Source of the DNA: Escherichia phage EcoPhCCP1
Strand: one strand, 5' to 3'
Sequence record: PQ384582.1
Length of the DNA stretch: 44,482 nt
The first letter of the stretch is position 1. Every line of letters begins with the position of its first letter. Position numbers and translations under genes: made by a program. The notes beneath the pieces are model-generated. The model was given only the letters and a program-made list of their open reading frames with translations. It did not search any database and was not told where the DNA came from. This document shows positions 3,662 through 33,146 of the stretch, piece after piece.

Positions 3662-3962
3662 TGCCACCTCCGCGACGTGCGATGTATTCTCCGGCGACAA
3701 TGCCAGAGAGACGGGAATAAATCGGCATCCAGAGAATAGCAATGATGAACCCAAGGCCCGCTATTTCGCGTTCACCCGCGATACCGAACCATTGAGCGGC
3801 AAGAGGCGCGCCAAATACGGCGCACGCAAAGCCAGTGGCGAGAAAACATAGAGCATCGACAGGGCCGGTAATAGTGGCTTTATGTTGCCGTAGCCCGATT
3901 ACCCCGCCAGCTAGTGCGGCAGCCAGAAGCCAGCCTGTCACAGTTTCAGTAAATTTATCCAA
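3654..3962 (-). CDS. holin (three predicted TM segments)
   Basis: Three hydrophobic segments and a charged C-terminus; start proposed at TTG 3960-3962, 6 nt after GGAGGA (track ORF extends to 4094). Confidence 0.55.
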   Translation of the reverse strand: MDKFTETVTGWLLAAALAGGVIGLRQHKATITGPVDALCFLATGFACAVFGAPLAAQWFGIAGEREIAGLGFIIAILWMPIYSRLSGIVAGEYIARRGGGNE

Positions 3963-4572: not shown

Positions 4573-5024
4573 TTAATACAATGACGGTGTGCCCCGCTTT
4601 CAGGGTATATGTATTCAAAGTCGTGGCAGCACTCCTGCACATCTTCCTTACGGCAACCAGATTGCTCAGTGTTGGCTTCGCTTTTCCCAAGCGCGGCTAA
4701 CATCGAGTCATAAAACGCAACCTTAAGGATATTAAATTGCGCACCGTTAATAGGGCCTTTAGCCACTAAAGCATCATGTAATTTCCACGCGGCAGAGTTA
4801 ACGCTAGGACTCGCCTTAGATGGAATAGAAACACCTTTCTGCAACTCCTTAATCTGCGCCGAAGCATCACGTAACTGATTCTTGAGTGACAACACCTCGT
4901 GCGCCAGGTCTTCGCACTGTTGCTTGTATGGGTTGTTAGTTAACTGCTGCCGTAGTTGGTTAAGCAGGAACTCGATTACTTCGTTTTTGTTACTCATATT
5001 ATGTACTCCACCTTTTCTCCGCAT
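4551..5024 (-). CDS. coiled-coil protein with C-terminal zinc-ribbon-like tail
   Basis: C-terminus CHDFEYIYPESGAHRHCIKCG; likely start at internal MSNKNEV. Confidence 0.45.
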   Translation of the reverse strand: MRRKGGVHNMSNKNEVIEFLLNQLRQQLTNNPYKQQCEDLAHEVLSLKNQLRDASAQIKELQKGVSIPSKASPSVNSAAWKLHDALVAKGPINGAQFNILKVAFYDSMLAALGKSEANTEQSGCRKEDVQECCHDFEYIYPESGAHRHCIKCGWITE

Positions 5025-5305
5025 TTACTACACGTATACAGCTTGCCGGTTGTATGCTCTGCAAAGTCGACAATCACCCGATGCTCACATTCTTCCACTT
5101 CCGGGGGTTCCGGAATCTCCATCGGCATCCAGTGTGTCGCGTCTTTTATGACAAACTGGCATTCATCGTCGGAGAACCCTTTTTGACTCCGCGAGTACGC
5201 GACACCGTGAACTACGCCGTGTGTAGGCGAGAACACCCATAAATCATAATCGTACTCTTCTGGTAATTTCTCGGAGCATTTAACCCACGCACCATTAGTA
5301 TTCAT
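4994..5305 (-). CDS. DUF551-like protein with C-terminal zinc-ribbon-like tail
   Basis: N-terminal W.KCSEKLP...HWMPMEIPEPPEV (DUF551-like) and C-terminal CEHRVIVDFAEHTTGKLYTCSKCG. Confidence 0.5.
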   Translation of the reverse strand: MNTNGAWVKCSEKLPEEYDYDLWVFSPTHGVVHGVAYSRSQKGFSDDECQFVIKDATHWMPMEIPEPPEVEECEHRVIVDFAEHTTGKLYTCSKCGEKVEYII

Positions 5306-5489: not shown

Positions 5490-5660
5490 TTATTGGTGTT
5501 TTAAAGATAATCGTTCACTGCGAATCCAGTAGTACCTCGGGCGTCGTGCCCACTGACGCCATCGCATAACACGGTACTTGTTGCCGTCTGACGCAACAAT
5601 AAGCCCGAATCGCTTTTCTCCGTTTCTACCAGTCCAGGTTACGATGTCATTCAGTTTCAT
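5490..5660 (-). CDS. hypothetical basic protein (56 aa, below cutoff)
   Basis: Translated by hand: MKLNDIVTWTGRNGEKRFGLIVASDGNKYRVMRWRQW...; GGAG upstream. Confidence 0.3.
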   Translation of the reverse strand: MKLNDIVTWTGRNGEKRFGLIVASDGNKYRVMRWRQWARRPRYYWIRSERLSLKHQ

Positions 5661-5794
5661 TGTCGCATCTCCCGCAATAGTCGCTTCGATTGTTTCGTTT
5701 GGTGGAAGTGTCGCTTTTTGACGACACTAATCTAAAGTTGTACGCTGCTGTGTAGCAGCGTAAGTCACTCAGTAAAATCCCAAACTATTGAACA

Positions 5795-6004
5795 TCACAC
5801 TTCCGGCGGCTCGGGTAACGGCATCCAGTGCGTGGGTTTCCACGAAGCCCCAGGAATTAGCCACCCATCATCAGCGTCAGGATGACCGGGGATATAAGTA
5901 GCCCACTTCATCCGCCAATCGCCTTTATGTCCAAACTCTGTAGCTACAAGAACGCCTGTCATTTTCGGCGGCATCCGCTCACTACACTTAATCCACTTAC
6001 ACAT
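5795..6004 (-). CDS. DUF551-like protein
   Basis: MCKWIKCSERMPP...PTHWMPLPEPPEV parallels the N-terminus of 4994..5305. Confidence 0.5.
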   Translation of the reverse strand: MCKWIKCSERMPPKMTGVLVATEFGHKGDWRMKWATYIPGHPDADDGWLIPGASWKPTHWMPLPEPPEV

Positions 6005-6173
6005 ATCTCACACCTCTTTCAATCAAGGATTGCACACCAGCTTTCCACGCCCGCCACGCGAGACGCGTCTTAACGTTCAGGTACTCTTTCTTTGAACCCT
6101 TGTTAACCTGCAGACCCTCGACGACGGCCCACCGTTCAAATGCTTCTCTCAAAATAAAGGTGCGGCTATTCAT
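5997..6173 (-). CDS. hypothetical protein (58 aa, below cutoff)
   Basis: Translated by hand: MNSRTFILREAFERWAVVEGLQVNKG...; start overlaps the stop of 6166..6411. Confidence 0.3.
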   Translation of the reverse strand: MNSRTFILREAFERWAVVEGLQVNKGSKKEYLNVKTRLAWRAWKAGVQSLIERGVRYV

Positions 6174-6411
6174 AACTAATAACTCCGATAACTTTAGATT
6201 TCTCGCGCCGGGTGCAACCGTGTTCGATGTAGTAACGCGCCTGCTTAACGCTTTCGCAACGGGTCAGAGTAACCCACCAGAAAAACCCGACCCGCATCTG
6301 CACGGCAGGTGTAATTCGTTTCTCCCCGAAGGCGGTAACCCACTCTTCGCTAACTATGCGGTATTTACTTAACACGGCAACCTCCCTCAGAGTCGTCGGC
6401 ACGAGCATCAT
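6166..6411 (-). CDS. hypothetical protein
   Basis: ORF track; tiles in minus-strand operon. Confidence 0.4.
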   Translation of the reverse strand: MMLVPTTLREVAVLSKYRIVSEEWVTAFGEKRITPAVQMRVGFFWWVTLTRCESVKQARYYIEHGCTRREKSKVIGVISYE

Positions 6412-7261: not shown

Positions 7262-7432
7262 ATGACTATCAATGAAGTAGCTGAACGTATTGGGGTGACG
7301 CGCCAGACAATTAATAACTGGATTAAGAGTGGAAAGTTTCCTGATTGCAGCGTTAAAGTAATGGGTCGCCGGATGCCGGGGACATTTGACCGTAATAAAG
7401 TTGAAGCGTGGATTAAGGAGAACGTGAAATGA
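7262..7432 (+). CDS. HTH DNA-binding protein (AlpA/Xis/MerR-like)
   Basis: Internal ATG 7262 with GGAG SD; MTINEVAERIGVTRQTINNWIKSGKFP is a typical HTH. Confidence 0.6.
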   Translation: MTINEVAERIGVTRQTINNWIKSGKFPDCSVKVMGRRMPGTFDRNKVEAWIKENVK

Positions 7433-11214: not shown

Positions 11215-11487
11215 ATGATTTACCAACTCTACCGAGCCGTAGACAGGCGGGATAGCACAGAGGCGTTATGGCTGTTGCGCGCGCCGTCCGGTGCGCACCA
11301 GATGGAAGAGATGGCGTACTTAGGCAAAGTACCACGGCCTAAAGATATAGGCCGTCACGTGTCGCAGATTAAGCGCACGACTTTCGCCAAGCCTGACTTT
11401 TATGTCTTCGAGTCGATGTATGGGTGGGCTATGCACTGCGAACATAAGACACGGCATTTAATTGACCAGTGGGAGAACAGGGTATGA
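11215..11487 (+). CDS. hypothetical protein
   Basis: Internal ATG 11215 with GAGGG SD, in frame with track ORF 11077..11487. Confidence 0.45.
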   Translation: MIYQLYRAVDRRDSTEALWLLRAPSGAHQMEEMAYLGKVPRPKDIGRHVSQIKRTTFAKPDFYVFESMYGWAMHCEHKTRHLIDQWENRV

Positions 11488-11981
11488 ATTGGCATGAAGT
11501 TTTTGACTACGACCCCGCTACAGGTAAATTATTTTGGAAAATAAGTCCGTCAAAATCTGTAAAAATAGGGCAAGAAGCTGGCAGTACGAGGGCGGACAAC
11601 GACGGGAGTGAATTTAAAATACTACGTTTTAACGGGACTACTAAACTTATCCACCACGTAGTTTGGGAGATGTTTAACGGGCCGATAGCGCCTGGGGAAG
11701 TAATTCGTCATAAAAATAAAGATAGAACTGATAACAGAATAGAAAATCTTATAAAAATGCGTCGGGGCAGTATCGCACACGGCACCAGCATACGGACGGA
11801 CAATACTTCAGGGGTTAAAGGTGTTGGGTTTCATAAACGCTATGGTAAGTGGGTCGCAAGAATTTATGTAGACGGCAGGCCGATTTATTTAGGGGCTTAC
11901 GATAAGTTAGAGAACGCGGCTAAGGCTCGCAGGCAAGCCGAGATTAAATACGGGTTTACAGTTAACGGAGCTGAGAAATGA
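11484..11981 (+). CDS. HNH homing endonuclease with AP2 DNA-binding domain
   Basis: HH...N...DNRIENL HNH core and AP2-like KGVGFHKRYGKWVARIYVDGRPIYLGAYDKLENAAKA. Confidence 0.75.
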   Translation: MNWHEVFDYDPATGKLFWKISPSKSVKIGQEAGSTRADNDGSEFKILRFNGTTKLIHHVVWEMFNGPIAPGEVIRHKNKDRTDNRIENLIKMRRGSIAHGTSIRTDNTSGVKGVGFHKRYGKWVARIYVDGRPIYLGAYDKLENAAKARRQAEIKYGFTVNGAEK

Positions 11982-13228
11982 TTCTAAAAGAACGCGGCGG
12001 CAATAATGACGTACACGCCTTACTGTCGCCGTCAGGTGCTAAAAAGTGGCTAAGCTGCGCCGCGTCACTGGCCTGTGAAAAAGATATTCCTAACACGTCA
12101 GGTAAAGCCGCGGTATTAGGCACAGCTATGCATACAATAGCCGAGGTCCATTTAAATCAGTACATCAAAGGCACTGCGCTGCCGTTAGAACGTGAAGTTG
12201 GCGCTTACGTGCTGGATGGGGGTAAAGGTCAGATTAAGGCGCTAATCAGCCCGATTAAAGGCGCGGTACTGATTACGGCGGATATGATTGAGCAGGTGCG
12301 TAAGTACACCGACTACTGCAAACCGATTATCGATGTAGCGACTTACGCCAAGCTCGAGATGCGCGTCAATCTTACTGAGGTATTGCATCCTGGCTACGAA
12401 GGTGTCGAGACGTTCGGAACTGCTGACCTTGTTGCCGTACAGGAACTGGCAAACACTGACGAGCACATGTTAATTATCGGCGACCTGAAAACTGGGCGGC
12501 ATCGTATCGAAGCGAAAGAAAACAAGCAGCTTATGCTCTATGCTCTCGGTGTTTATCGCCGACTCAAGAGACGTTATAACATCGCAGTTGTTCGTCTGGT
12601 CATCTTCCAGCCGTACGCTGGCGGGGCGTCGGAGTGGGACATCTCGGTTGAAGGTCTGGAACTGTTCGCTAAGTTCGCACAGAAACGTGCACTGTTGGCT
12701 CTTGATGCCTATTTCCGCGGTAAGAAGAACCTGAAAGCGTCGGACTTCAAGCCGTCTGTCGATGGTTGTCAGTGGTGCCGGTTCTCTGAACAGTGTGCTG
12801 CGCGTACAAAAACCGTTAACGCGGTACTGGCGGAAGAGCTGGAGGACGACTTTGCACTGGAACTGACGCCGGAGCAACTCGTAACTGAGTATGAGAAGCT
12901 GCCGTTGTTGCGCCAGCACATAGACAAGGTTGAGAAAGCGATGGCCGCCGCATTGCATTCAGGTAAGAAAGTGCCAGGGTACAAGCTGGTTGAAGGCCGT
13001 CCTGGTAATCGTGCGTGGAAAGACTCCGATGCGATTGAAGTGTCACACGGCGACATTCTCAAAAAAGAGGTATTGATGTCGCCCACGGAGGCAGCAAAAG
13101 TTCTTTCGGCGGACGAGATGGCAGCGCTTGAGCCGTTTATCACGCGTAAGCCGGGCGCACCATGTGTCGCATCGGCAGACGACAAGCGTCCTGAGTGGAA
13201 TCAGGTAACAGAGGAGGATTTAGAATGA
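11978..13228 (+). CDS. PD-(D/E)XK nuclease, Cas4/DUF2800-like
   Basis: N-terminal HALLSPSGAKKWLSCAAS, DLKTG motif and C-terminal Cys cluster (C.WCRF...C). Confidence 0.65.
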   Translation: MILKERGGNNDVHALLSPSGAKKWLSCAASLACEKDIPNTSGKAAVLGTAMHTIAEVHLNQYIKGTALPLEREVGAYVLDGGKGQIKALISPIKGAVLITADMIEQVRKYTDYCKPIIDVATYAKLEMRVNLTEVLHPGYEGVETFGTADLVAVQELANTDEHMLIIGDLKTGRHRIEAKENKQLMLYALGVYRRLKRRYNIAVVRLVIFQPYAGGASEWDISVEGLELFAKFAQKRALLALDAYFRGKKNLKASDFKPSVDGCQWCRFSEQCAARTKTVNAVLAEELEDDFALELTPEQLVTEYEKLPLLRQHIDKVEKAMAAALHSGKKVPGYKLVEGRPGNRAWKDSDAIEVSHGDILKKEVLMSPTEAAKVLSADEMAALEPFITRKPGAPCVASADDKRPEWNQVTEEDLE

Positions 13229-13545: not shown

Positions 13546-14175
13546 ATGGGCATTAAACTGAATCTGCGTAAAGTAAACACTGCTTGGGTTAATGTATTCG
13601 AACGTGCTGCCGACTCTGAGGACAAGAAAACCGGTAAACTGATTAAGGGTAAATATCAGGTTACTGTTCTTATGCAGCCCGACCACCCTCAAATCGACGC
13701 GCTTTACGACACAGCGCTAGAAGTTGTAACAGAGGCAATCGGGACCGCCGCCGCTGAAAAATGGATGAAGGCCAACTACGGCGAAGACCACCATGCAGAT
13801 AAATGCTGCGTCCGTGACCTGGCAATGCGCGACAACCCGATTGAGGATTTTGAAGAAGGTCTGTATTTCCGCGCTACTAACAACCGCCAACCGGTAATTA
13901 TGACCTCGGCTAAAGGCGAAAAACAAACCGAGCCTGATTTCAACATCGACGGGCAGGAAGTAGAAGGCGAGCAGGTATATAGCGGGTGCGTAGCAAACGT
14001 ATCTGTAGAGTTATGGTGGCACAAAGAATGGAAAAACCTGTGCGCCACCATCCTCGGCATCAAGTATGCTGGTGAAGGTAAACGCTTCGGCGGCTCCAGT
14101 GTAGTAGCGAGCACCGACGACCTGGAAGACGACGAAGAAGATGGAGCACCGCGCCGTGAACGCCGCCGTCGCTAA
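13546..14175 (+). CDS. ssDNA-binding protein (DUF2815-like)
   Basis: Sits between the DUF2800-like nuclease and the DNA polymerase; acidic C-terminal tail DDLEDDEEDG. Confidence 0.55.
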   Translation: MGIKLNLRKVNTAWVNVFERAADSEDKKTGKLIKGKYQVTVLMQPDHPQIDALYDTALEVVTEAIGTAAAEKWMKANYGEDHHADKCCVRDLAMRDNPIEDFEEGLYFRATNNRQPVIMTSAKGEKQTEPDFNIDGQEVEGEQVYSGCVANVSVELWWHKEWKNLCATILGIKYAGEGKRFGGSSVVASTDDLEDDEEDGAPRRERRRR

Positions 14176-17291: not shown

Positions 17292-17483
17292 ATGAAACAC
17301 GAATATGATCGCAAACCAGCACGTGACATCGTACCTGGCGACATGATTTTCAACGTTAAGACTCGCCGTCCTGTTGCCGTTGATACGGTGTTCGTCGAGT
17401 CGAACGGTAAACTGGTTATCGAAGATGTAACGGGAAACGTTACGGCGTTCGGGCGTAAAGAGTTAGTTCTGGTGCTGAAATGA
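17292..17483 (+). CDS. hypothetical protein
   Basis: ORF track; ATGA overlap with the methyltransferase start. Confidence 0.45.
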   Translation: MKHEYDRKPARDIVPGDMIFNVKTRRPVAVDTVFVESNGKLVIEDVTGNVTAFGRKELVLVLK

Positions 17484-18403
17484 ACTATTACAACGAATGG
17501 GATAAAGGCGCAGCCGCGTGGCTGCGCGAATTAATAAAACAGGGTCTCATACCTTTTGGAGTTGTAGATGAAAGAAGCATTACCGAAATTAGACCAGAAG
17601 ACCTTGACGGGTTCACCCAGTGTCATTTTTTCGCTGGTATCGGCGGCTGGCCTCTCGCGCTCAGACTTGCGGGAGTTTCGGAAGATACGCCTCTCTGGAC
17701 GGGAAGCCCGCCTTGCCAACCGTTTAGCGCGGCAGGAAAACAACTCGGACAGTTCGACCCGAGACACCTCGCGCCAGTCTTCCTCGACCTCATCAGCGAG
17801 TGCCGCCCTCCAGTCCTCTTTGGGGAACAGGTTGCGCCAGCAATTGCAAAATCGTGGATGTGCGATTTACAAACTCACCTGGAAGGAGAAGACTACGCCG
17901 TCGGGTTTGCCGTACTCCCAGCTTGTGGCGTCGGCGCACCGCATAAAAGAGAGCGACTCTTCTTTGGTGCGTACCAACTGGCCGACACCGACAGCGAACG
18001 ATTACAAAGGGAGCGGAGAGACAGTGATTCGCAAGGACGGGAAGGACAGAACATTCGACAGGCTGGACTACTCAACGGAGCAGGGACTGAAAGCGGCATG
18101 GGGGACGCCGACGGTTCAGAATTCGCGTCACGGCAGCTACAGCGAGGCGGAAACAAAAAGAGACCCGAACAATCTGCACAATCAATGCTACCTCGTGGTG
18201 GCAATCCGAATCGCAGCTTCTGGTCGGATGCTGACTGGCTCGGATGCCGTGACGGAAAATTTAGGCCAGTTGAACCCGGCACATTCCCGCTGGCTAATGG
18301 GATACCCGCCAGAGTGGGACGATTGCGCGGTTACGGCAATGCTATCGTCCCGCAAGTAGCTGCCGAATTTATAAAGGCGTTTATGGGGGCCATAAATGAG
18401 TAA
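17480..18403 (+). CDS. DNA (cytosine-5)-methyltransferase, apparently frameshifted
   Basis: Frame of 17480: motif I FAGIGG, IV PPCQPFS, VIII HKRERLFF, X GYGNAIVPQVA; frame of 17568: WPTPTANDYKGSG, WGTPT and LNPAHSRWLMGYPPEWDD. Confidence 0.7.
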   Translation: MNYYNEWDKGAAAWLRELIKQGLIPFGVVDERSITEIRPEDLDGFTQCHFFAGIGGWPLALRLAGVSEDTPLWTGSPPCQPFSAAGKQLGQFDPRHLAPVFLDLISECRPPVLFGEQVAPAIAKSWMCDLQTHLEGEDYAVGFAVLPACGVGAPHKRERLFFGAYQLADTDSERLQRERRDSDSQGREGQNIRQAGLLNGAGTESGMGDADGSEFASRQLQRGGNKKRPEQSAQSMLPRGGNPNRSFWSDADWLGCRDGKFRPVEPGTFPLANGIPARVGRLRGYGNAIVPQVAAEFIKAFMGAINE

Positions 18404-19820
18404 GTTTCAAAGGCGCGAGTACCAGAAGCTCATGACCTCGTTCATGTTGCAACACCATCGCTGCAACATATGGGCAAGCATGGGCGCTGGGAAGACTGGC
18501 AGCGTACTGTGGGCATTAAACCGACTGTTCCGCAACGGCCAACTTAATGATGACGACCGCGTGTTAATACTCGCCCCGCTGCGCGTTGCGTCCGGCACAT
18601 GGCCCGCAGAACAAGAGAAATGGCGATTCCCGTGTCTGAGTGTCGTAGATGCGACCGGTTCAGAGAAGCGCCGCATCGCGGCGCTGGAGTCGGACGCTAA
18701 CGTGGTGTGCACCAACTACGAAGTTATCGAGTGGCTGATTGACTACTATGGCAAAGACGACTGGCCTTTTACGGTCATCGTTGCCGATGAGAGCACGAAA
18801 CTGAAATCATTCCGCAGCCGTTCAGGTGGTAGTAAGAGGGCGAAGGCGCTCAGTAAGGTGGCATTTGGAAAGGTTAAGCGTTTTATTAACCTGACGGGAA
18901 CGCCGTCACCGAACGGCCTCAAAGACTTGTGGGGTCAGAACTGGTTTATCGACGCGGGCGAGCGACTCGGGTCTTCTTACACAGCATTCACCGACCGCTG
19001 GTTCAACTCGGTACAGAAAGGAAAATCGGCTATGGCGCGCGAGTATCACGCCCGCCCGGGTGCAGATACTGAGATTCACCAGAAGATGAAGGACATTAGT
19101 CTCACGATTGACGCTGCTGAGTGGTTTGGGTGTGAAGCCCCGATTATTGTACCGGTTGAAATCGACCTGCCGAAGAAAGCGCGTCAGGCTTACATCGATA
19201 TGGAGGAGAAGTTATTCGCGGAACTGGAGAGCGGAGAAGTTGAAGCGGCTAACGCGGCGGCGAAGACGTCGAAGTGTTTGCAGATTGCGTCTGGTGCCGT
19301 GTATGTGTCGGGGCCTGATGGCGAAGCAACGAAAGACTGGGAGAAGGTGCACGACACGAAACTGGATGCGCTTGAGTCCATTGTTGAGGAGTTGCAGGGT
19401 GCGCCATTACTGGTAGCCTATCAGTTCAAGCACGAACTGGAGCGCATCCTTAAGCGATTCCCGCAGGCGCAGGCGTTTGCCAAAGGTGCTAAGGGTAATA
19501 AGCAGATGGACGCGTGGAACCGCGGCGAGATAGAGATTTTGTGTGTACATCCTGCGTCAGCCGGGCATGGTTTGAATTTACAGGACGGCGGACACCATCT
19601 GGCGTTTATTTCGCAAGGCTGGAACCTTGAACACTATTTGCAGGTTGTTGAGCGTATAGGCCCAGTGCGCCAGAAGCAGGCCGGGCATGGGCGCCCTGTG
19701 TTCCTGTATCACATAGTCGCTAAAGACACGCTGGACGAGGTTGTTGCCGCGCGTACGGACGAGAAGAAATCGGTACAGGAAGAGTTGCTTAATTACATGA
19801 AGAGAAGGAGTAAGAAATGA
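18396..19820 (+). CDS. SNF2-family (DEXH-box) helicase
   Basis: Walker A GAGKTG, DEST box, LTGTPSPNGLKDLW (motif III) and C-terminal GHGLNLQ / QVVERIGPVRQ helicase motifs. Confidence 0.8.
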   Translation: MSKFQRREYQKLMTSFMLQHHRCNIWASMGAGKTGSVLWALNRLFRNGQLNDDDRVLILAPLRVASGTWPAEQEKWRFPCLSVVDATGSEKRRIAALESDANVVCTNYEVIEWLIDYYGKDDWPFTVIVADESTKLKSFRSRSGGSKRAKALSKVAFGKVKRFINLTGTPSPNGLKDLWGQNWFIDAGERLGSSYTAFTDRWFNSVQKGKSAMAREYHARPGADTEIHQKMKDISLTIDAAEWFGCEAPIIVPVEIDLPKKARQAYIDMEEKLFAELESGEVEAANAAAKTSKCLQIASGAVYVSGPDGEATKDWEKVHDTKLDALESIVEELQGAPLLVAYQFKHELERILKRFPQAQAFAKGAKGNKQMDAWNRGEIEILCVHPASAGHGLNLQDGGHHLAFISQGWNLEHYLQVVERIGPVRQKQAGHGRPVFLYHIVAKDTLDEVVAARTDEKKSVQEELLNYMKRRSKK

Positions 19821-25598: not shown

Positions 25599-26080
25599 AT
25601 TCGTGGAAACGTTGATTGCGCGGTTCCGTAGGCTTTAAGGAAACATCCCAGCCCATCACCATAGCAACCATACAAGTCCGGCAGATTGTTAACAAGGCAC
25701 TGGTTCTCAAGGTTCTGGAACGGCGATTTCTCTGCGGTTGCCGTGAAAGTAATAGTCCAGTTGACCCCGTCTTCGGTGGACTCGGCGATGGTTGACGTGA
25801 TTGTTACCTGATAATCCTCAATACCCATTCCGAAGTCATGCGCCATCCAGAAACTTGACGCACCGCCATCGACTTTCTCGAGGAACGACAGAAACGCCTG
25901 CCGCCCTAGTGCTGAGGTAATCAGGGTTACGCTTATTGGGAACACGTCGTAATACGTGTCGCGACCCTGACGCACCCCGCCACCGGCTAAATCAACGCTC
26001 CAGACGTTGTTACGTCTGGTCATTGAGTAGCCTTTTGACACCACCGGCTTAAGGCTACGTGGAAAAAATAAGTCAGTCAT
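25580..26080 (-). CDS. minor tail protein (gpM-like by position)
   Basis: Immediately downstream of the tape measure gene. Confidence 0.4.
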   Translation of the reverse strand: MTDLFFPRSLKPVVSKGYSMTRRNNVWSVDLAGGGVRQGRDTYYDVFPISVTLITSALGRQAFLSFLEKVDGGASSFWMAHDFGMGIEDYQVTITSTIAESTEDGVNWTITFTATAEKSPFQNLENQCLVNNLPDLYGCYGDGLGCFLKAYGTAQSTFPRIWDPMQ

Positions 26081-28419
26081 TATTTGAACCCCGGCGCATT
26101 TCTTGTGGCCTTTCGGGCCTTGCTAATCTTACTGTTGCTGTTCTGCAAAGAGGCAGCCACTTGCTCTTCGATGATGATACGCAAACGGCCTTCATCATCT
26201 TGTTCAGTGGATACGTTGCCAATCTGACTCGATGTGTTATTTACGATGGTAACATTAGATGTGCCAGAAGAAGACCCGTTTTGCCCCATAATTTCTTTCA
26301 TCTGCTGCGCGGTACGAACACGCGATGCCCCAGCGGGCATGATAACTTCGGGTTTACCACGTTCCGCGATGGTGGAAGCCTGCCCTGCGGATAACTGACC
26401 ACCCTGTTCACGCGCAGACCTGATAGCGGAAACCTGCGCCATACCTGCCCCAACGGCAGCAGCAGCAGCTACCGGTGCAAGGAACGGTCCGACAACCGGG
26501 ATAGCAGCAGTTGACTTATATGCCTCAATAGCTGCGGTGTACGTAGCGATAGTGGCTTGTACGATAGCGAACGCTTTATAAGCGCCAGATGCTTCACCTA
26601 ACGCGGACCCAATGTTGGATGCCATATTGCCAAAAGCTGTTGCCGTTGCGTCAGCACGCTTGGTTGCGTACTGTTCGTTGATGGCGTTAAGCGCAGCCTG
26701 GTATTGTTCTTCATTAATAAGACCCTGTTCCCGGTACTTATCCGCTACCGCCAGTTTCTGCTGTTCCTGAATATCCAGAAGCTCAAGCTCGGTGGCATTC
26801 TGGCCCATAATCTGAGCCATGAAATCGTCACCTTTCTGTTGCTTTTCCTGGGCCTCCTTCCTTTTCTTGTCCAGTTCTTCCTGGCGGGCCTGCTCAGCGG
26901 ATAACATAATCTGCGTCTTGGCGTTTTCGTATTGCTGGTCGCTAAGAAGCTTATTGCTATAGAAATCCTGCAACTTAGACAGTTGCTCTTCCTGGTTAGC
27001 TTCTATTTTCTGGAATACGTCATCATTAAGATGGATTGACTGATAGTAGAAGTCTTCCGCCGCTTTTTTCTGGCGCTCGAACGCGTCCGCTGCTTTCTTA
27101 GCGGCTTTTGCGGAGGACCCGTCATCGTCAGAACCGCCACCAGTTCCGGTTACCTTAAATTTGTTTAACCCCTCAGCTTTTGCGGATTCCTTATCGATGT
27201 CATATGCCGCGCGTTTTAACGCTACAATATCCTGTTGAGCTTCTACCTGTTCGCGGAAACTTTTACGCGTAACGTCGGCGACATCGCGCTGGGTATCCAA
27301 AGCCAAGCCAAGCTGGAAGTTGATATTTTTAGCTACGTCTACTGATTCCCCGGGGGTGAAAGCGGCTCGTACAAGACGGCCCGCGTCCTGCGCACCTTTA
27401 ACCATATCTTCAAAGAATCTCTCCATCGCGGTGAACTCTTCCGCGATGAAGTCAAGCGCATCGGCAGCGGATTCCGCGATGGTGGTAGCTGTTTGTCCTC
27501 CGCTATCGGTAATACTCTTGCTGCTGAAATCCCACAGTTCATTAAGCCCGTTGATGGCGTCGCCGACAAAGCCAAACGCAGCGTCGAATGACATCTCGAT
27601 AGCGCTTCCTACTTCCGACGCGATGTCGCCCCACATCTGCATTTCAGCGGCTAATTCACCGGAAGCAACAGACGCGTTTAATTCCTGAATCAAGTCATCG
27701 ATATACCTGATAGGTTCAGCAAGTGCGCCAACATCAAGACTGGTGGCAAGCGTCATTTTTAGCTGCGACCATGAGTCACTGGCACTCGCGATAGCGCCAT
27801 TAAGGGTGTTGGCTTGGTCCGCCATAGCCCCCGCAAAATTTACGTTACCAATATTGAGTAAATACTGCTCGATATCGGCAGCGCTTTTCTTAACTACCGT
27901 TGTCGTTCCCTGGAACGTAAACTCTACGTCGTTTTTGTTCTGCTTGGCTTTGATGCCGAATTCTTTGAGGCGTTCGAACTCGAACGTACTGGCGTCGGCT
28001 ACCGCCTCAATCATCTGATTAAGGTCCTTACCCATAGCCGATGCGGTATTGCCGTAGGACCGCAACGCCTCCTCGGATGGGGTAAGGCCCAGAGCCACCA
28101 GCTTACGGAAGCCTTCCACCGCCTGCTCAAGCCCGTATGGGGTGTCGCGCGCAAAATCTTGCAGGATACTAAGCGCCTGTTTAGCGCCCTGGGTACTTCC
28201 GGTTAAGGTCTTCAAACTAGCGGACATCTTGTCCAGTTGCCGCTGTGAGTCAACCAGTTCTTGCGCGGCTTTATATGCGGTAGCCGCTACGATAGAAGCA
28301 AGGCCTGCTACAGCGGCCCCCGCTACTTTTGCGGACTTTGAAAGGTTGTCAAGACGGTCTGACGTGGCTTTCGCGCCTTGCTCTGATACTTTTACGACTA
28401 AACTAGCTACATCAGCCAT
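26080..28419 (-). CDS. tail tape measure protein
   Basis: 779 aa, Ala/Gln/Glu-rich helical protein downstream of the chaperone pair. Confidence 0.8.
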   Translation of the reverse strand: MADVASLVVKVSEQGAKATSDRLDNLSKSAKVAGAAVAGLASIVAATAYKAAQELVDSQRQLDKMSASLKTLTGSTQGAKQALSILQDFARDTPYGLEQAVEGFRKLVALGLTPSEEALRSYGNTASAMGKDLNQMIEAVADASTFEFERLKEFGIKAKQNKNDVEFTFQGTTTVVKKSAADIEQYLLNIGNVNFAGAMADQANTLNGAIASASDSWSQLKMTLATSLDVGALAEPIRYIDDLIQELNASVASGELAAEMQMWGDIASEVGSAIEMSFDAAFGFVGDAINGLNELWDFSSKSITDSGGQTATTIAESAADALDFIAEEFTAMERFFEDMVKGAQDAGRLVRAAFTPGESVDVAKNINFQLGLALDTQRDVADVTRKSFREQVEAQQDIVALKRAAYDIDKESAKAEGLNKFKVTGTGGGSDDDGSSAKAAKKAADAFERQKKAAEDFYYQSIHLNDDVFQKIEANQEEQLSKLQDFYSNKLLSDQQYENAKTQIMLSAEQARQEELDKKRKEAQEKQQKGDDFMAQIMGQNATELELLDIQEQQKLAVADKYREQGLINEEQYQAALNAINEQYATKRADATATAFGNMASNIGSALGEASGAYKAFAIVQATIATYTAAIEAYKSTAAIPVVGPFLAPVAAAAAVGAGMAQVSAIRSAREQGGQLSAGQASTIAERGKPEVIMPAGASRVRTAQQMKEIMGQNGSSSGTSNVTIVNNTSSQIGNVSTEQDDEGRLRIIIEEQVAASLQNSNSKISKARKATRNAPGFK

Positions 28420-28771
28420 CGTTTCTACCCTCGAAAATAGCGTCTAAGCTCATGATGATGTCAGATTCAAACATGCCTATATTCTGGCCCGAAACGGTGC
28501 TGTACGCCACTAAATCCGACCATCGTAACTGTTCGCGCGGGTACATCTTGATGTCGTCGTCATCTACTCGGCGGGTAAATTTGATTTCCCGGTACTTCTC
28601 GAAGGTGGTTAATAGCTCAGGGGGACATTCCGGCCCGGTGTCCTGCGTTGCTTCCGGCGCGTCTTGCATAACCCCCATAGCAATTAGCGCGGCTTTATGC
28701 CCGTCGGCGATACTGTCAAATTCCCGCCGTTTGTGGCGGGTTATGAAGTTCCAACGAGCGAACTGGAGCAA
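28412..28771 (-). CDS. tail assembly chaperone, frameshift-extension part (gpT-like)
   Basis: Open in the -1 frame relative to 28777..29193 across a 32-nt overlap window (28777-28810). Confidence 0.45.
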   Translation of the reverse strand: MLQFARWNFITRHKRREFDSIADGHKAALIAMGVMQDAPEATQDTGPECPPELLTTFEKYREIKFTRRVDDDDIKMYPREQLRWSDLVAYSTVSGQNIGMFESDIIMSLDAIFEGRNDG

Positions 28772-28776
28772 CGCGT

Positions 28777-29193
28777 CTACTTTTCCTGTAACTGGCGCAG
28801 TTGTTCGTTATGAAACACAACAACAAGTTCCGCGAGTCGTTTATATTGCGTCAGGAGTGTGTTCAGATTCTCTTTATTGAATTCGTCGTCCAGGCTCCAC
28901 CCGTTAACCAATTCAATTGCTAACTGTCGGTTAAGGTCCGTGGCCGCATCTTCCATCTTCAGGTTGTATTCAGAGAAATCTTTCATCTCTTCGCACTTAT
29001 CACGAAGCGGTTTTAATTTCCCTAACACTGCCCGGTATGCAAGGGTGAACGCGCGCATAGCCTTAACGGCAACGTCTGCCTCAGGAGAAACAACATTAAG
29101 CCATTCCCCAGAATCGGTACCGTCTTTTAACGGTATCGGCATACGCGCACCCTTTTCGGCTTCAGCTTCGTAATAAAAATCAGAAAGTTTCAT
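28777..29193 (-). CDS. tail assembly chaperone (gpG-like)
   Basis: Acidic 138-aa protein directly upstream of the tape measure gene. Confidence 0.55.
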   Translation of the reverse strand: MKLSDFYYEAEAEKGARMPIPLKDGTDSGEWLNVVSPEADVAVKAMRAFTLAYRAVLGKLKPLRDKCEEMKDFSEYNLKMEDAATDLNRQLAIELVNGWSLDDEFNKENLNTLLTQYKRLAELVVVFHNEQLRQLQEK

Positions 29194-29300
29194 TCTTTAA
29201 TCCTTTGGTTAAGAGGTTACTGGTTAAAGGAAATGCGCCAGACGGGAACCACCCGCTTTTCGTGTGCGACACTAGGCGCAAAATTATTCTAACACACTAC

Positions 29301-29329
29301 TTGCACACCCCAATATAATAGGGTACTAT
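29301..29329 (+). promoter_or_regulatory. phage promoter family member TTGCAC-N17-TACTAT (plus strand) driving the moron island
   Basis: 32 bp (29301-29332) identical to 39188-39219. Confidence 0.6.
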
Positions 29330-29360
29330 TCACTTACACCAACAATGGAGGGGTTTTAAG

Positions 29361-29552
29361 ATGTCCAGTTTACCAATTTCCTTAATTCTGTTCGCACTGC
29401 TTGCTTATTTCGCACCTTTCCTGGTTGCGTACTTCCGTAATCATAAAGCGAAGTTAGCGATATTCATGGCTAACTTATTTCTTGGGTGGGTTCTGTTGCC
29501 GTGGGTATTCATTTTAATCTGGGCTTGTAACTCGAACGTGAAAGAGAAGTGA
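29361..29552 (+). CDS. small two-TM membrane protein, superinfection-immunity-like
   Basis: YFAPFLVAYFRNH...NLFLGWVLLPWVFILIWA resembles the Imm_superinfect pattern; GGAGGGG SD. Confidence 0.5.
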   Translation: MSSLPISLILFALLAYFAPFLVAYFRNHKAKLAIFMANLFLGWVLLPWVFILIWACNSNVKEK

Positions 29553-29590
29553 GCTACTATAGGACAAATCCTAAACACGAGGAAGTAAGC

Positions 29591-30721
29591 ATGGCCCGGA
29601 AGAAAATAACCGACGAACAGTTACAGGAAGAATTGAACGCCGGGGTTAAAACTATCGATATAGCCCGTAAATATGGCATCTCAGACCGCGTTATTCGTAT
29701 CCGTAAAGCGAAGCTGGCGAAGAAAGGCGTGGGTCATGGGCGTGACGTTAGCCACCTTGTGCCGGACGGCTACAAGATTAAAGGAACATCGTCACTTGTG
29801 GACGAGTTCGGCAACACTAAGTTGCAATGGGTTAAGACCGATACCGATGCCGAACGTCAGGTCGAATTGATGAAAGCCGTAATCGAGGGCATGAAGTCAG
29901 AGATTACTCCAGTTGCGCCTGTTAAAGCCGCCCGCACCAAACGCGACGACAAGCTGCTCAATCTTTACACGGTATCTGATTTCCATCTCGGTATGCTGGC
30001 CTGGGCTGACGAGAGCGGCGACGACTGGGATATGAAGATTGCGGAAGACCTGTTTTCTCGCTGGTTCGATGCGGCGTTTCAGAAAGCACCAGATGCGGGA
30101 ACCGGGGTTATTAACCTGCTGGGTGACTTTGCTCACTTCGATAGCCTGGACGCCGTTACACCTGAGTCGCGCCATGTGTTGGACGCCGATACTCGCTATC
30201 AGAAACTGGTTCGCTACATGATTCGTATGGTGCGCCGTGTTGTTGATATGGCGCTTGTTAAACATAAAACCGTTCGCTTGCTTATCGTGCAAGGGAACCA
30301 CGACGAAAGCGGAATGATTTGGTTGGCTGAGATGTTCAGTACGCTGTACGACAACGAGCCGCGTGTGTTCGTCGATACGTCGCCGGATGTGTACAAGATG
30401 GTGCGACACGGCAAAACGACGCTGTTCTTCACACATGGTCATAAATGCCGGTTTGAGGTGGTCGAACCAATTATGATATCTAAGTTCAGAAAAGCATTCG
30501 GGGAAAGCGAGTACAGCTACGCTCACGTAGGCCACCTGCATCACCAGAAAATTGTAGAAAGCCGTAACATGATTGTTGAGCAACACCGCACCTTAGCGGC
30601 TAAAGATGCCTACGCCTCTCGTGGCGGATGGATGTCAGGACGCAGTGCAAATGTAATTACTTATAGCGCCGAATACGGCGAGGTCGCACGTTTAACTATT
30701 TCACCGGAGATGCTGGGATGA
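29591..30721 (+). CDS. calcineurin-like metallophosphoesterase with N-terminal HTH
   Basis: Motifs SDFHLG, LLGDFAHFD, VQGNHDE, THGH, VGHLHH; ATG 29591 with GGAAG SD (track ORF starts at GTG 29549). Confidence 0.6.
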   Translation: MARKKITDEQLQEELNAGVKTIDIARKYGISDRVIRIRKAKLAKKGVGHGRDVSHLVPDGYKIKGTSSLVDEFGNTKLQWVKTDTDAERQVELMKAVIEGMKSEITPVAPVKAARTKRDDKLLNLYTVSDFHLGMLAWADESGDDWDMKIAEDLFSRWFDAAFQKAPDAGTGVINLLGDFAHFDSLDAVTPESRHVLDADTRYQKLVRYMIRMVRRVVDMALVKHKTVRLLIVQGNHDESGMIWLAEMFSTLYDNEPRVFVDTSPDVYKMVRHGKTTLFFTHGHKCRFEVVEPIMISKFRKAFGESEYSYAHVGHLHHQKIVESRNMIVEQHRTLAAKDAYASRGGWMSGRSANVITYSAEYGEVARLTISPEMLG

Positions 30722-31203
30722 AAGATATTGTAATTTTCGATTTAGATGGAACATTGGCAGATGGTATGCATCGTTTACACCTGCTGCCGAAAGATAACTA
30801 CAACGAAACATGGGCGTGGAAACCCTTTAACATGGCGTGCAAAGATGATGAACCAATTAGAGATAACATCGAACTGTGTAACGCCCTTAATCGTCGCTAC
30901 GCCGTTATTATTTTAACTGGTCGCAGTGATGATGCAGAAAAAGAAACCAGAATGTGGTTGCAGCGCCACCGCGTCGAATTTTATCAGTTAATCATGCGCA
31001 GCAAACACGACAACAGAAAAGACATCGTAATTAAAGAAGAGGTGTTACGCGCTATCGGGCTGGAAAGAATATTGTGCGCATTCGACGACTCTCCGGCGGT
31101 AATAAAGCATTTCCGCGGACTCGGTATAACCACTCACGCGGTTACTGAATACGACTGTAACGGGAATTCTACACACTTAAAATCACACGGGAGCGATAAA
31201 TAA
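30718..31203 (+). CDS. HAD-superfamily phosphatase / 5'-nucleotidase-like
   Basis: HAD motif I FDLDGTLAD at the N-terminus. Confidence 0.6.
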   Translation: MKDIVIFDLDGTLADGMHRLHLLPKDNYNETWAWKPFNMACKDDEPIRDNIELCNALNRRYAVIILTGRSDDAEKETRMWLQRHRVEFYQLIMRSKHDNRKDIVIKEEVLRAIGLERILCAFDDSPAVIKHFRGLGITTHAVTEYDCNGNSTHLKSHGSDK

Positions 31204-31772
31204 TGGCTAAGGTAATTATTCTTAATGGCCCGGCGGGTTGTGGGAAAGACACACTTGCTATGGTGCTGGTAGAAATGGGCTTTGCGAAGGGTGCTACCAG
31301 TTTCAAAAATCCAATGTTCAATATTGCTCTGGCAGCGTTAGGTCCGGATGCGTACCACGAGTTTCTCGACGGCTACGACGACCGGGCGCGGAAAGAAAAG
31401 CCAGAGGGTTTCCTTAATGGTTTGTCTCGTCGTCAGTTCATGATTGCCATTTCTGAGCAATTCATTAAACCGGTTCTCGGCGGCGATTATTTCGGTAAGT
31501 ATCTTGCTGAAAACTTGCCCGACGGCGATGACGTTTTTGTAGTGTCAGACGGTGGATTCGCCAGTGAAGTGTCCCCTATCGTCGCCGCAGGGCATGACGT
31601 AAAAATCGTTCGCTTGCGCAGAGACGGCTATACGTTTGACGGGGATAGTCGTGGTTACCTGTACGGTATTGATGGTGCGGTATGTCATGACGTTGTGGCC
31701 ATCCCAGGCGAGATTACATTAACAGCAGCTGCGATTGCTAATAGAATCCTGGGGATTTATCCAAATGCGTGA
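31203..31772 (+). CDS. P-loop kinase, dNMP-kinase-like
   Basis: Walker A NGPAGCGKDT (GKDT variant as in T4 gp1-type dNMP kinases). Confidence 0.55.
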   Translation: MAKVIILNGPAGCGKDTLAMVLVEMGFAKGATSFKNPMFNIALAALGPDAYHEFLDGYDDRARKEKPEGFLNGLSRRQFMIAISEQFIKPVLGGDYFGKYLAENLPDGDDVFVVSDGGFASEVSPIVAAGHDVKIVRLRRDGYTFDGDSRGYLYGIDGAVCHDVVAIPGEITLTAAAIANRILGIYPNA

Positions 31773-31941
31773 ATGTACAATGGGGACAATATTTGTAATC
31801 CGCGTATATGACGAAGAATGGGATGAGTGGGTTGATATTTATGCTGTTGGTAGTAAGGAAGAGGCCGCAAAAGAGATGACAGAACGGAGTGACAGAGGTC
31901 AGTTAACTAACTTCTACGAAATGCCATTCAAAAGTGAGTGA
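31765..31941 (+). CDS. hypothetical protein
   Basis: ATG 31765 in frame with track ORF 31735..31941; ends at the terminator. Confidence 0.35.
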   Translation: MRECTMGTIFVIRVYDEEWDEWVDIYAVGSKEEAAKEMTERSDRGQLTNFYEMPFKSE

Positions 31942-31946
31942 GTGAG

Positions 31947-31976
31947 AAAAAGGCCCCGAAAGGGGCCTTAGTTTTA
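31947..31976. terminator. bidirectional rho-independent terminator
   Basis: AAAAAGGCCCC-GAAA-GGGGCCTT flanked by A-run and T-run. Confidence 0.75.
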
Positions 31977-33146
31977 TGCGTAGGTGATACGCTGGATAAC
32001 AATAGACGACTGGTATTGATTGCCTGTGGACTGCCCTTCTATGCTCTGGGTAATTGATTCAGGTCCGCCAATCTCTGGCGTAACCGCCGTGAGTTCTGCG
32101 CGTTTCAGACTGAAAGACATAGCCCCGTTTACCCCCGCCAGAATAGAGTTAATCTCTACCTGCTGTTCGTTGATAAACTTCTGAATCATCGCCATGTCAT
32201 ACAGCTTACCGGAGATGGAGAAGGTGTTAGCCGCGCGGCTACGTTCCACAAACGCTACGTTAGTGTTGCCGAGTTCGAACTGTGCGGACGCGCTGTTATC
32301 GTTGGTGATGGTCAGGCTGTCGCAGCGCAACGGCGTAGAGCCATCGAACACAGAAACGTCAACCGAGGAGAACGGCTCATCAGTGAACGTAACAGAGGAG
32401 AAGTCGGAACCAGACGGCGCCGCGGTAAGAATCTCCTGGCTGCGCCCGATGAACGGGAAGCTGCCCGTCACCATCGCGTTAACGGTCTGTTCAACAGTGA
32501 AACCAGAAACTTCCACGCCTTTGGTAAGCGTGTACGCGTCTGTCCCGCCGCACTGGCCCTTGTACCAGGTGAGAATAGAGAACGTCTTACACTGGCTGCC
32601 GGTTTCCAGTTTGTCGCCGGTCTTAGCCGCGGTAGTAGCAGTCTCGGTGATCAGAGTGTGTTGAATACCCGCACCAGTTACCACCAGTGCCTCTACCGCA
32701 GTAACAATAAACGGTTTAGCGTTATCGCCGGTTAAGTCAGTAAACGCAATCAGGTCGCCTACTTCCACACCGTCAGTAATAAAGCTACCTCCGGCACGGG
32801 TGAACGTCTTGTCCACCGGTGCGACGGTAATCGACAGCCCCGACAGAGAAACACCGGATTGCCACGTAGAGCCTAAAGCACCCGCCAGCCAGTCGTCCTG
32901 GCTTTTAGAGCTAAGCTCGACCGCGTATTCACCGCTAACCTGTTTGTTACCGGTTCGGATGGATGTAGTTTCACGGCTGCCGTCCAGTTCGTTGGAGGTC
33001 AGCGTGTCGCGGGTGATAGCAGGAACGCCACCTGTGTTACGCAACGGTGACCAGACCGGGTTAGTCGGTGTTACGCCCGGGGTAGTTTCCGCCACATAGA
33101 ATTGCGCGGTAGTCGCGCCCTTAAAAGGAGTTGTAGCCATATTCAC
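31974..33146 (-). CDS. major tail protein (by position)
   Basis: 390-aa Thr/Ser-rich protein downstream of connector/terminator genes; no motif recognised. Confidence 0.5.
   Translation of the reverse strand: MNMATTPFKGATTAQFYVAETTPGVTPTNPVWSPLRNTGGVPAITRDTLTSNELDGSRETTSIRTGNKQVSGEYAVELSSKSQDDWLAGALGSTWQSGVSLSGLSITVAPVDKTFTRAGGSFITDGVEVGDLIAFTDLTGDNAKPFIVTAVEALVVTGAGIQHTLITETATTAAKTGDKLETGSQCKTFSILTWYKGQCGGTDAYTLTKGVEVSGFTVEQTVNAMVTGSFPFIGRSQEILTAAPSGSDFSSVTFTDEPFSSVDVSVFDGSTPLRCDSLTITNDNSASAQFELGNTNVAFVERSRAANTFSISGKLYDMAMIQKFINEQQVEINSILAGVNGAMSFSLKRAELTAVTPEIGGPESITQSIEGQSTGNQYQSSIVIQRITYA

Follow-up and report, generated by a model that had tools for sequence, protein, structure and literature searches.

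A plus-strand gene slot with three predicted phosphoryl-handling enzymes in the tail region of Kagunavirus phages

Gene content of the locus

The 44,482-nucleotide DNA of Escherichia phage EcoPhCCP1 (record PQ384582.1), which will be called the window from now on, carries between its tail-assembly chaperone and tail tube genes a block, or island, of five co-directional plus-strand genes (29361-31941) that interrupts the minus-strand tail genes (Table 1). In order, these genes encode an Imm-family superinfection immunity protein, a calcineurin-like metallophosphoesterase (MPE) fused to a helix-turn-helix (HTH) domain, a stand-alone HAD phosphatase, a P-loop kinase and the product of a small conserved open reading frame (ORF). 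Both the arrangement and the domain calls, including the two transmembrane helices of the Imm-like protein and the GKDT type of the P-loop, had been put forward in a first-pass annotation; the ORFs and the Pfam-typed flanking genes confirmed the former, and family matches and motifs agreed with the latter. As all but one of the five proteins match a known family strongly, a chance origin of the gene set is no issue.

Table 1. Genes and transcription signals at the tail locus of the window.
Feature	Position	Strand	Basis
Tape measure gene (flank)	26080-28419	-	
Phage_TAC_18 chaperone part (flank)	28412-28771	-	Pfam
Phage_TAC_4 chaperone (flank)	28777-29193	-	Pfam
Candidate sigma-70-type promoter	-35 TTGCAC 29301-29306, 17-nt spacer, -10 TACTAT 29324-29329	+	read from sequence
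Imm-family superinfection immunity protein, 63 amino acids	29361-29552	+	PF14373, phrog_1039
HTH-fused MPE, 376 amino acids	29591-30721 (mechanical start GTG 29549)	+	phrog_704, motifs
Stand-alone PNKP-type HAD phosphatase, 161 amino acids	30718-31203	+	PF25109
Predicted T4 gp1-type dNMP kinase-like P-loop kinase, 189 amino acids	31203-31772	+	P-loop GPAGCGKDT, phrog_139
Small conserved ORF, 58 amino acids (53 from ATG 31780)	31765-31941	+	codon conservation
Bidirectional intrinsic terminator hairpin (AAGGCCCC-GAAA-GGGGCCTT)	31950-31969	both	called by terminator scan
Phage_tube_2 tail tube protein (flank)	31974-33146	-	Pfam, E 2e-39

The window is classified as a Kagunavirus (subfamily Guernseyvirinae), and its gene order is colinear with that of Escherichia phage ST20, a member of this genus. 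In all, 318 phage records match the 2.8-kb region; most belong to Guernseyvirinae phages of Salmonella and Escherichia, and the top matches are Kagunavirus genomes with 86-91% nucleotide identity. When compared with ST20, the synonymous and non-synonymous codon differences amount to 13/3 for Imm, 91/20 for the MPE, 41/24 for the HAD, 39/16 for the kinase and 11/3 for the small ORF. A 229-residue antisense ORF inside the MPE gene (29897-30586, minus strand) was also considered as a gene and rejected as non-coding, because it shows 8 synonymous and 70 non-synonymous differences with respect to ST20, where the frame contains two stops. In K1ind1, both chaperone ORFs of the flank are annotated as one joined, frameshifted product.

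The three enzyme genes are tightly packed: the MPE stop codon overlaps the HAD start (ATGA, 30718) and the HAD stop overlaps the start of the kinase gene (TAATG, 31203). These overlaps indicate that the three genes are translationally coupled. The small ORF follows, and its probable start, ATG 31765, overlaps the 3' end of the kinase gene. Its product had no match in Pfam, PHROG, NCBIfam or PADLOC. The versions of ST20 and SZH-1 are 94-96% identical to it, with synonymous/non-synonymous differences of 12/2 and 9/3, and these codon changes show that the ORF is under purifying selection. PADLOC and NCBIfam scans of all five island proteins yielded nothing informative and, in particular, no match to an anti-defence family.

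A conserved slot with exchangeable cargo

The first-pass annotation regarded the five genes as inserted among the tail genes. This notion had to be qualified when six Kagunavirus and Jerseyvirus genomes were inspected (Jersey, wast, K1ind1, ST20, SZH-1 and fEg-Eco19), as in every one of them a plus-strand unit, whose second gene is the MPE, separates the chaperone gene from the tube gene. The island is, therefore, not a recent insertion, and both the slot and its MPE are probably ancestral to the Guernseyvirinae. What is swapped is the first gene and those placed after the MPE. The first position is occupied by Imm or, in Jersey and SZH-1, by an unrelated protein of 109 amino acids; the MPE is followed by the HAD and the kinase (window, ST20, K1ind1) or by a 76-residue protein, alone or together with an HNH endonuclease or a 66-residue protein; and the last position holds the small ORF in the window, ST20 and SZH-1 and an ANT/KilAC protein in Jersey and wast, and is empty in K1ind1. 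Among these similar genomes, then, Imm, the HAD, the kinase and the small ORF vary in their presence, whereas the MPE does not. The positions other than that of the MPE are, as this synteny reads, swappable cassettes. That the island could be variable had been raised in the first-pass annotation, and the comparison bears it out: the cargo differs among relatives, and the same five genes were not seen as a core common to all of them. In terms of identity bands, about 290 records contain an MPE at least 80% identical to that of the window, versus 52 with a kinase at least 60% identical, and the island DNA is covered to at least 80% in 49 records. The HAD-kinase pair is thus present in roughly 50 of the approximately 290.

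Past the MPE, the cargo of Jerseyvirus (Jersey_22, 5559-6170; wast_34, 5525-6241; wast_36, 4671-5171; positions on the retrieved loci) comprises an ANT/KilAC antirepressor-domain protein (PF03374, E 1.6e-9), to which wast adds a gene annotated as "putative endonuclease". The presence of such genes means that the slot accepts unrelated cargo.

The protein encoded in the first position of the window scores 48.6 bits against PF14373 (cutoff 27.9; E 7.5e-13) and matches phrog_1039, "immunity to superinfection", with an E-value of 1.5e-22. Its translation is hydrophobic at roughly residues 5-24 and 32-54, and these stretches are predicted to form two transmembrane helices. By analogy with T4 Imm, with which it shares the family match above cutoff, the small size and the two hydrophobic helices, it is most likely an inner-membrane protein that blocks the entry of DNA from superinfecting phages. 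It differs from T4 Imm in that it sits in a siphovirus tail operon. The 109-residue proteins that replace it (Jersey_25, 3609-3938, and its SZH-1 counterpart, 2609-2935, on the retrieved loci) are 58% identical to each other, begin with a hydrophobic N-terminus that resembles a signal peptide and lack a Pfam match; they may represent an alternative exclusion protein.

Islands with the same content and order (Imm-MPE-HAD-kinase, with or without the small ORF) are found in published Kagunavirus genomes such as K1G, K1ind1-3, ST20, RP180, Golestan and others, the 30 best records showing 86-91% nucleotide identity over 89-100% of the region. Annotations of the island are thus already on record for dozens of published Kagunavirus genomes, the K1 phage records being the first, under names such as "immunity to superinfection", "DNA repair exonuclease", "polynucleotide kinase" and "ATP-binding protein/dNMP kinase", and the published papers name its genes by annotation only. 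The version found in the window differs from all of these, its best whole-island match reaching 89.7%, and its parts match different phages best: the HAD that of RP180 (99.4%), the kinase that of XY1 (93.7%) and the MPE that of EP-M-A (97.3%).

The metallophosphoesterase

The MPE most likely starts at ATG 29591, which lies behind an AGGAAG Shine-Dalgarno sequence and is the start annotated in relatives, and not at GTG 29549. The protein, which matches phrog_704 end to end (E 1e-164), is made of an N-terminal three-helix HTH (approximately residues 8-45), a conserved beta-hairpin segment (57-85) and the catalytic domain (125-376). The motifs DxH, GD, GNH(D/E), H and GHxH are all present, as they are in nine phage homologues. 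In a set of 111 homologues with 33-49% identity, D130, H132, G178, D179, N236, H237 and H282 are invariant, and G314, H315 and H317 are conserved in at least 90% of the sequences; an insert specific to the family, VTPxSGHxLDxDxR, located between motifs II and III, is likewise conserved. With its five motifs invariant or nearly so, the MPE is almost certainly an active enzyme. It is, nevertheless, a very divergent member that stays under the Pfam thresholds (24.5 bits versus 27 for Metallophos_2 and 20.0 versus 21.5 for Metallophos), so its assignment to the superfamily rests on the motifs. The family is a large one, with 2039 phage records detected by tblastn and 4642 clusters at 50% identity.

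The HTH is supported by three helices of moderate confidence at the N-terminus of the MPE model, and many members of the family match HTH families of Pfam (GerE, Sigma70_r4, HTH_1, HTH_8 and others). The NCBI name of the protein, "winged helix-turn-helix domain-containing protein", refers to the same region, and the homologues from Campylobacter phages lack the domain. The AlphaFold2 model as a whole, built from homologues that were all at least 86% identical, had a predicted local distance difference test (pLDDT) score of 42.9 and was unfit for a fold search.

Motifs I (SDxHLG) and II (GDxxH) resemble in kind those found in Mre11/SbcD. The likeness to these nucleases lies in the five metal-binding and catalytic motifs, and the difference in the N-terminal HTH and the family-specific insert of the window protein. 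Searched against solved structures, the MPE profile found T. maritima Mre11 with an E-value of 0.076 when built from nine sequences and of 0.5-0.6 when built from 111, neither of which is significant. Neither the island nor the annotations of ST20 and K1ind1 include a Rad50/SbcC-type ATPase partner. As far as these comparisons go, the MPE shows no specific similarity that would back the name "DNA repair exonuclease" given to it in databases. A 45-residue ORF of ST20 (19509-19646 on the retrieved locus) is annotated as "exonuclease subunit SbcD", and the Golestan paper annotates SbcD similarly; being too small for a functional SbcD, the ST20 ORF probably owes its label to propagation.

A phage MPE with the five motifs has been described in mycobacteriophage A10ZJ24, whose Gp48, according to the available part of the report, is a phosphodiesterase that damages host DNA, leading to the silencing of defence genes (PMC12287305). 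Specific homology between Gp48 and the window MPE was not detected, and Mycobacterium is outside the ten commonest organism names among the 2039 MPE matches; that part of the report describes, unlike the case presented here, no HTH fusion and no HAD or kinase partners. Functionally, Gp48 sets a precedent for DNA as the target of a phage MPE.

The HAD phosphatase and the P-loop kinase

The HAD protein belongs to the family PF25109 (HAD_PNKP), with 68.9 bits for a cutoff of 27.6 and an E-value of 6e-19. Its best solved relatives are Pnkp1 (4xrp, E 2.2e-6) and the phosphatase domain of T4 Pnk (5uj0, E 3.5e-4; 1ltq, E 4e-3). The residues of HAD motifs I-IV (D8, D10, G11, T12, T67, G68, K106, D123 and D124) are invariant across Kagunavirus, T1, Webervirus, Aerosvirus and Bonnellvirus. 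It shares with T4 Pnkp/PseT and with bacterial Pnkp1 the PNKP phosphatase family and all four motifs, and it differs from the T4 protein in not being fused to a Pnk-type kinase; its neighbour is a gp1-like kinase, and no RNA ligase partner was found in the annotations of ST20 and K1ind1 or in the window proteins scanned. The frequent annotation as "polynucleotide kinase" is thus wrong for this protein, since it has no kinase domain. The activities of PNKP phosphatases have been restated elsewhere (PMC7203180).

The kinase, which matches phrog_139, contains a P-loop of the GxxxxGKDT type (GPAGCGKDT) in which G14, K15 and D16 are invariant in 56 homologues. The model built from the alignment of these 56 sequences is confident (pLDDT 93.3), and its predicted fold is closest to that of the deoxynucleoside monophosphate (dNMP) kinase gp1 of T4, not to that of a polynucleotide kinase. 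Profile alignment with T4 gp1 (1DEK) by hhalign gave a probability of 67% and an E-value of 5e-5 over the N-terminal 73 columns only, covering the P-loop (GPAGCGKDT versus GVKRSGKDT) and a D-R motif; the profile search against PDB sequences returned P-loop matches only. On the basis of the model, the protein is a T4 gp1-type dNMP kinase-like enzyme, although it is 19% identical to T4 gp1 and about 50 residues shorter. A Pnk-type 5'-kinase domain, such as the bifunctional T4-type Pnkp of tRNA repair has, was not found. The possibility that the HAD and the kinase represent a split T4-like Pnkp was also considered, and it was rejected for the kinase on its fold and P-loop type, and because no ligase was found in the relatives' annotations or the window proteins scanned.

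Remote-homology searching or structure prediction had been proposed with the first-pass annotation. The former placed the HAD (by Pnkp1 and T4 Pnk) and the latter the kinase (by the fold of T4 gp1); for the catalytic domain of the MPE, solved structures gave only the non-significant matches to Mre11.

Recurrence of the gene order in other phages

The order MPE-HAD-kinase, on one strand, is also found in Webervirus GH-K3 and in Aerosvirus ZPAH7, in the latter directly after exonuclease and endonuclease genes. The same order and strand is thus common to three phage families, counting those of Webervirus (Drexlerviridae) and Aerosvirus (Autographiviridae). The triads of these two genera differ from that of the window in their sequence (40-59% amino-acid identity), in the lack of an Imm gene and in their position, which is not in a tail operon but in a replication or early module, beside a methylase and a holin, or beside an exonuclease, an endonuclease and an RNA polymerase. 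In Bonnellvirus the order is exonuclease, endonuclease VII, MPE and HAD, and in T1 the HAD is followed by an HNH insertion and the kinase, the MPE being far from the pair.

The 80 nearest HAD loci in IMG/VR, retrieved with a HAD alignment, have their genes on one strand and comprise 38 with MPE-HAD-kinase, 28 with HAD-kinase and 14 with the HAD alone; no other gene order was seen among them. As Kagunavirus and Drexlerviridae dominate this sample, it documents recurrence and not independence.

Considered one by one, the genes also have informative neighbours. In Drexlerviridae, the MPE comes after helicase, VRR-NUC and methylase genes; in Gorganvirus, it is near genes for a dUTPase and a dCMP deaminase; and more distant MPE genes are next to those for an OB-fold SSB-type protein (Vibrio phages), a thymidylate synthase (an N4-like roseophage) or a DNA ligase (Campylobacter phages). 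The kinase gene of rV5-like phages is near thyX and nrdA. Neither a ligase nor another enzyme of nucleotide metabolism was found in the annotations of ST20 and K1ind1 or among the nine larger window proteins scanned with Pfam.

Transcription signals and other features of the window

The first-pass annotation credited the block with its own promoter and a bidirectional terminator. The terminator is strong and conserved. Its hairpin has eight pairs, six of them G-C, is flanked by T-rich tracts on both strands, and folds with -20.4 kcal/mol on the plus strand (z -4.6) and -15.4 kcal/mol on the minus strand (z -4.7) relative to shuffles; it serves the island and the convergent tail tube gene. The stem is retained in Jersey, where the loop differs, and its 3' arm in wast. 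The promoter fared less well: the TTGCAC/TACTAT pair fits 7 of 12 consensus positions, and the promoter scan made no call there, although in the alignment of Kagunavirus and Jerseyvirus the hexamers TTGCA and TA[C/T]TAT are kept, while the spacer and the neighbouring bases have diverged. An alternative -10 element, the perfect TATAAT at 29314-29319, was rejected in favour of the TTGCAC/TACTAT pair because this TATAAT is not kept in Jerseyvirus. The pair at 29301-29329 is, therefore, a plausible promoter for the island.

In an RNA-seq study of phage vB_Eco_K1B4, of low resolution, the Imm gene fell in another temporal class than the tail genes (PMC12645636). The closest match to the window's island is that of vB_EcoS-K1_SXAU_B4, whose name resembles vB_Eco_K1B4; that they are the same phage is not confirmed.

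The intergenic region at the left edge of the block has features of its own. Rfam family RF02996 (int-alpA RNA) matches the minus strand at 29218-29282 (36.6 bits for a gathering threshold of 35.8; E 4.7e-4), in the leader that precedes the tail-assembly chaperone gene, where the chaperone/tape-measure transcript begins; the match in fEg-Eco19 is weaker (32.3 bits). The consensus fold of seven Guernseyvirinae sequences consists of an outer stem with two hairpins, and three pairs show compensatory two-sided changes between Kagunavirus and Jerseyvirus, which supports the structure. This RNA could be a leader, an attenuator or a stabiliser of the chaperone/tape-measure transcript. Ending about 4 nucleotides upstream of it is a candidate divergent minus-strand promoter (29286-29313), with an extended -10 TGtTAGAAT (29294 to 29286), a weak -35 TTGGGG and a 16-nucleotide spacer; the scan made no call here either, and Jerseyvirus has TGtTATTCT at this place. 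Such a promoter could restart transcription of the tail genes past the island. The window also encodes, at 7262-7432 on the plus strand, a 56-residue protein of the HTH_17/excisionase type (MerR-like HTH, E 1.3e-9). It is 80% identical to gp41 of K1ind1, annotated as "excisionase and transcriptional regulator", and is mentioned here because the window has an int-alpA-type RNA motif. AlpA belongs to the same HTH clan as proteins of this type.

Elsewhere in the window, the replication module includes a C-5 cytosine DNA methylase domain protein (17480-18403, plus strand) and an Enc34-type single-stranded DNA-binding protein (13546-14175, plus strand). An endonuclease with HNH_3 and AP2 domains, likely a homing enzyme (11469-11981, plus strand), ends 4 nucleotides into the gene for a DUF2800/PD-(D/E)XK nuclease (11978-13228); the HNH insertion between the HAD and kinase genes of T1 is a similar case.

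Proposed function and its alternatives

In phage T4, gp46/47 takes part in the breakdown of host DNA, the 3'-phosphatase of PseT acts on 3'-dNMPs and on DNA ends, and gp1 feeds the supply of deoxynucleoside diphosphates (dNDPs). From the gene structure, family membership, conservation of catalytic motifs, synteny and cassette variability observed at the locus, the best reading, to which we give an even chance, is that the three enzymes would serve nucleotide salvage or DNA-end processing, and Imm superinfection exclusion. The substrates, the order of the steps, the timing of expression and the exclusion phenotype are given here as we infer them. The host RNA polymerase would transcribe the slot from its own promoter and stop at the hairpin shared with the tail tube gene. 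The HTH would hold the MPE on DNA, where, as a two-metal phosphodiesterase, this enzyme would cleave nucleic acid or trim it; 3'-phosphates, whether on DNA or RNA ends or on 3'-(d)NMPs, would be taken off by the HAD; and the kinase would convert dNMPs to dNDPs for the synthesis of phage DNA. In this way, the trio would turn the products of nucleic-acid breakdown into DNA precursors and, at the same time, keep DNA ends clean, being a miniature counterpart of T4 gp46/47, the PseT phosphatase and gp1. The HAD and the kinase would constitute an optional cassette, swapped in beside a resident MPE.

Several observations weigh against this proposal. The HAD resembles polynucleotide-end phosphatases and not nucleotidases, and end-processing fits it at least as well as salvage does. 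The MPE is unplaced as to functional subfamily: the only matches of its catalytic domain to solved structures, those to T. maritima Mre11, are marginal, and hhalign assigned its profile a probability of 2.9% for E. coli SbcD and of 0.6% for the lambda NinI phosphatase, values that do not discriminate. Moreover, close relatives without the HAD and the kinase are viable phages, so that the pair is conditionally useful and not required; by analogy with T4 pseT, such an optional pattern would also be expected of a counter-defence gene.

A different explanation would be that there is no common pathway at all, the MPE acting alone as a core nuclease of replication or recombination, or as a regulator, in the company of a HAD, a kinase, Imm and a small ORF that are unrelated passengers gathered in a permissive slot with its own transcription. 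Indeed, the MPE stands by itself in Tunavirus SH2, Dhillonvirus JL1, Gorganvirus, Rhodobacter phage RcIroh, a Vibrio phage and others, the separation seen in T1 points the same way, and so do the unrelated genes (for the 76-residue protein, the HNH endonuclease and the ANT/KilAC protein) that follow the MPE in Jerseyvirus. However, three phage families keep the MPE-HAD-kinase order with overlapping or nearly abutting frames, and in 66 of the 80 loci sampled the HAD lies next to the kinase. We consider this explanation unlikely, yet the closest competitor to a shared role in salvage or end processing.

The MPE domain of Clostridium thermocellum Pnkp performs end-healing chemistry on 2',3'-cyclic phosphates, and this opens another alternative. 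The trio would repair RNA ends (for instance, those of tRNA) or DNA ends left by host defence nucleases, in the manner of T4 Pnkp against PrrC. Opening 2',3'-cyclic phosphates would fall to the MPE and clearing 3'-phosphates to the HAD; 5'-OH ends would be phosphorylated by the kinase, and sealing would be left to a host ligase. The PNKP type of the HAD, with the RNA-repair protein Pnkp1 and T4 Pnk as its best solved relatives, fits such a scheme, as does the MPE chemistry just mentioned, and the HAD-kinase pair is accessory and patchy in close relatives, as counter-defence genes usually are. On the other hand, the kinase is of the gp1 type, the annotations of ST20 and K1ind1 and the nine window proteins examined with Pfam contain no RNA or DNA ligase, PADLOC gave no match to an anti-defence family, and in other phages the trio lies in replication or nucleotide modules. 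On balance, this counter-defence scheme seems improbable. The first-pass annotation had leaned towards a module that processes nucleotides or nucleic-acid ends, possibly for host takeover or counter-defence. The phosphoryl-handling enzymes on which it was based are real; nevertheless, since the kinase is gp1-type, no ligase was found in the relatives' annotations or the window proteins scanned, and the trio lies in replication and nucleotide modules elsewhere, ordinary nucleotide and DNA metabolism is favoured over repair or counter-defence.

Finally, the MPE and the HAD could act on free nucleotides or on signalling nucleotides of immunity, with the kinase re-phosphorylating dNMPs, as a phage-side mirror of the bacterial calcineurin-like and HAD effectors that deplete deoxynucleoside triphosphates (dNTPs). 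Phage T5 is an example of a phage that encodes a dNMP kinase. In the bacterial PUA-Calcineurin-CE-HAD system, a cascade in which the HAD precedes the MPE acts on dNTPs when triggered by m6-dAMP derived from phage-induced breakdown of host DNA, and T5 is among the phages assayed for protection by this system (bioRxiv 10.64898/2026.01.15.699771). The likeness consists of a calcineurin-like phosphoesterase and a HAD phosphatase acting in sequence on deoxynucleotides, a precedent to which can be added that a dNMP kinase reverses the last step of the cascade and that MPEs are catalytically promiscuous; in contrast, the bacterial system is encoded by the host, relies on a PUA sensor, assembles into filaments and depletes dNTPs. 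We regard this explanation as very improbable, given that PADLOC detected neither similarity of the island proteins to defence families nor a sequence relationship to PUA-Calcineurin-CE-HAD, that the HAD of that system is a capped type I (C1) enzyme and the one in the window PNKP-type, that its HTH makes the MPE look like an enzyme associated with DNA, and that the use of T5 in the protection assay means that a dNMP kinase alone may not protect. There is, correspondingly, only a slim chance that the trio is a dedicated counter-measure to nucleotide-based immunity, one that clears or re-phosphorylates breakdown products of deoxynucleotides acting as danger signals, such as m6-dAMP, or rebuilds the pools that dNTP-depleting defence systems have collapsed. 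Were this the case, the HTH-MPE would become the founding member of a very large phage enzyme family (over 4600 clusters at 50% identity) with a non-nuclease activity.

Meaning for Kagunavirus and related phages

The island itself is ordinary for its phage group and already present in GenBank annotations, the window contributing a new sequence variant. In the literature, no paper was found on the function of the MPE, the HAD or the kinase in T1-like or Jersey-like phages. PTXU04, a phage included in CRISPRi-ART screens, was considered as a possible Kagunavirus and rejected, as it is a different phage, with 92 coding sequences and a polyvalent protein of 2198 amino acids.

An immediate consequence of the family assignments is that the misleading label "polynucleotide kinase" could be corrected for the stand-alone HAD. 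Beyond this, the HTH-MPE family ranks among the more widespread phage enzyme families without a solved structure or an assay, and the order MPE-HAD-dNMP kinase in three phage families offers a concrete and testable case for a shared pathway. Natural pairs of Kagunavirus phages whose sole difference is the cassette behind the MPE offer, for their part, ready-made isogenic material with which nucleotide supply could be set against counter-defence.

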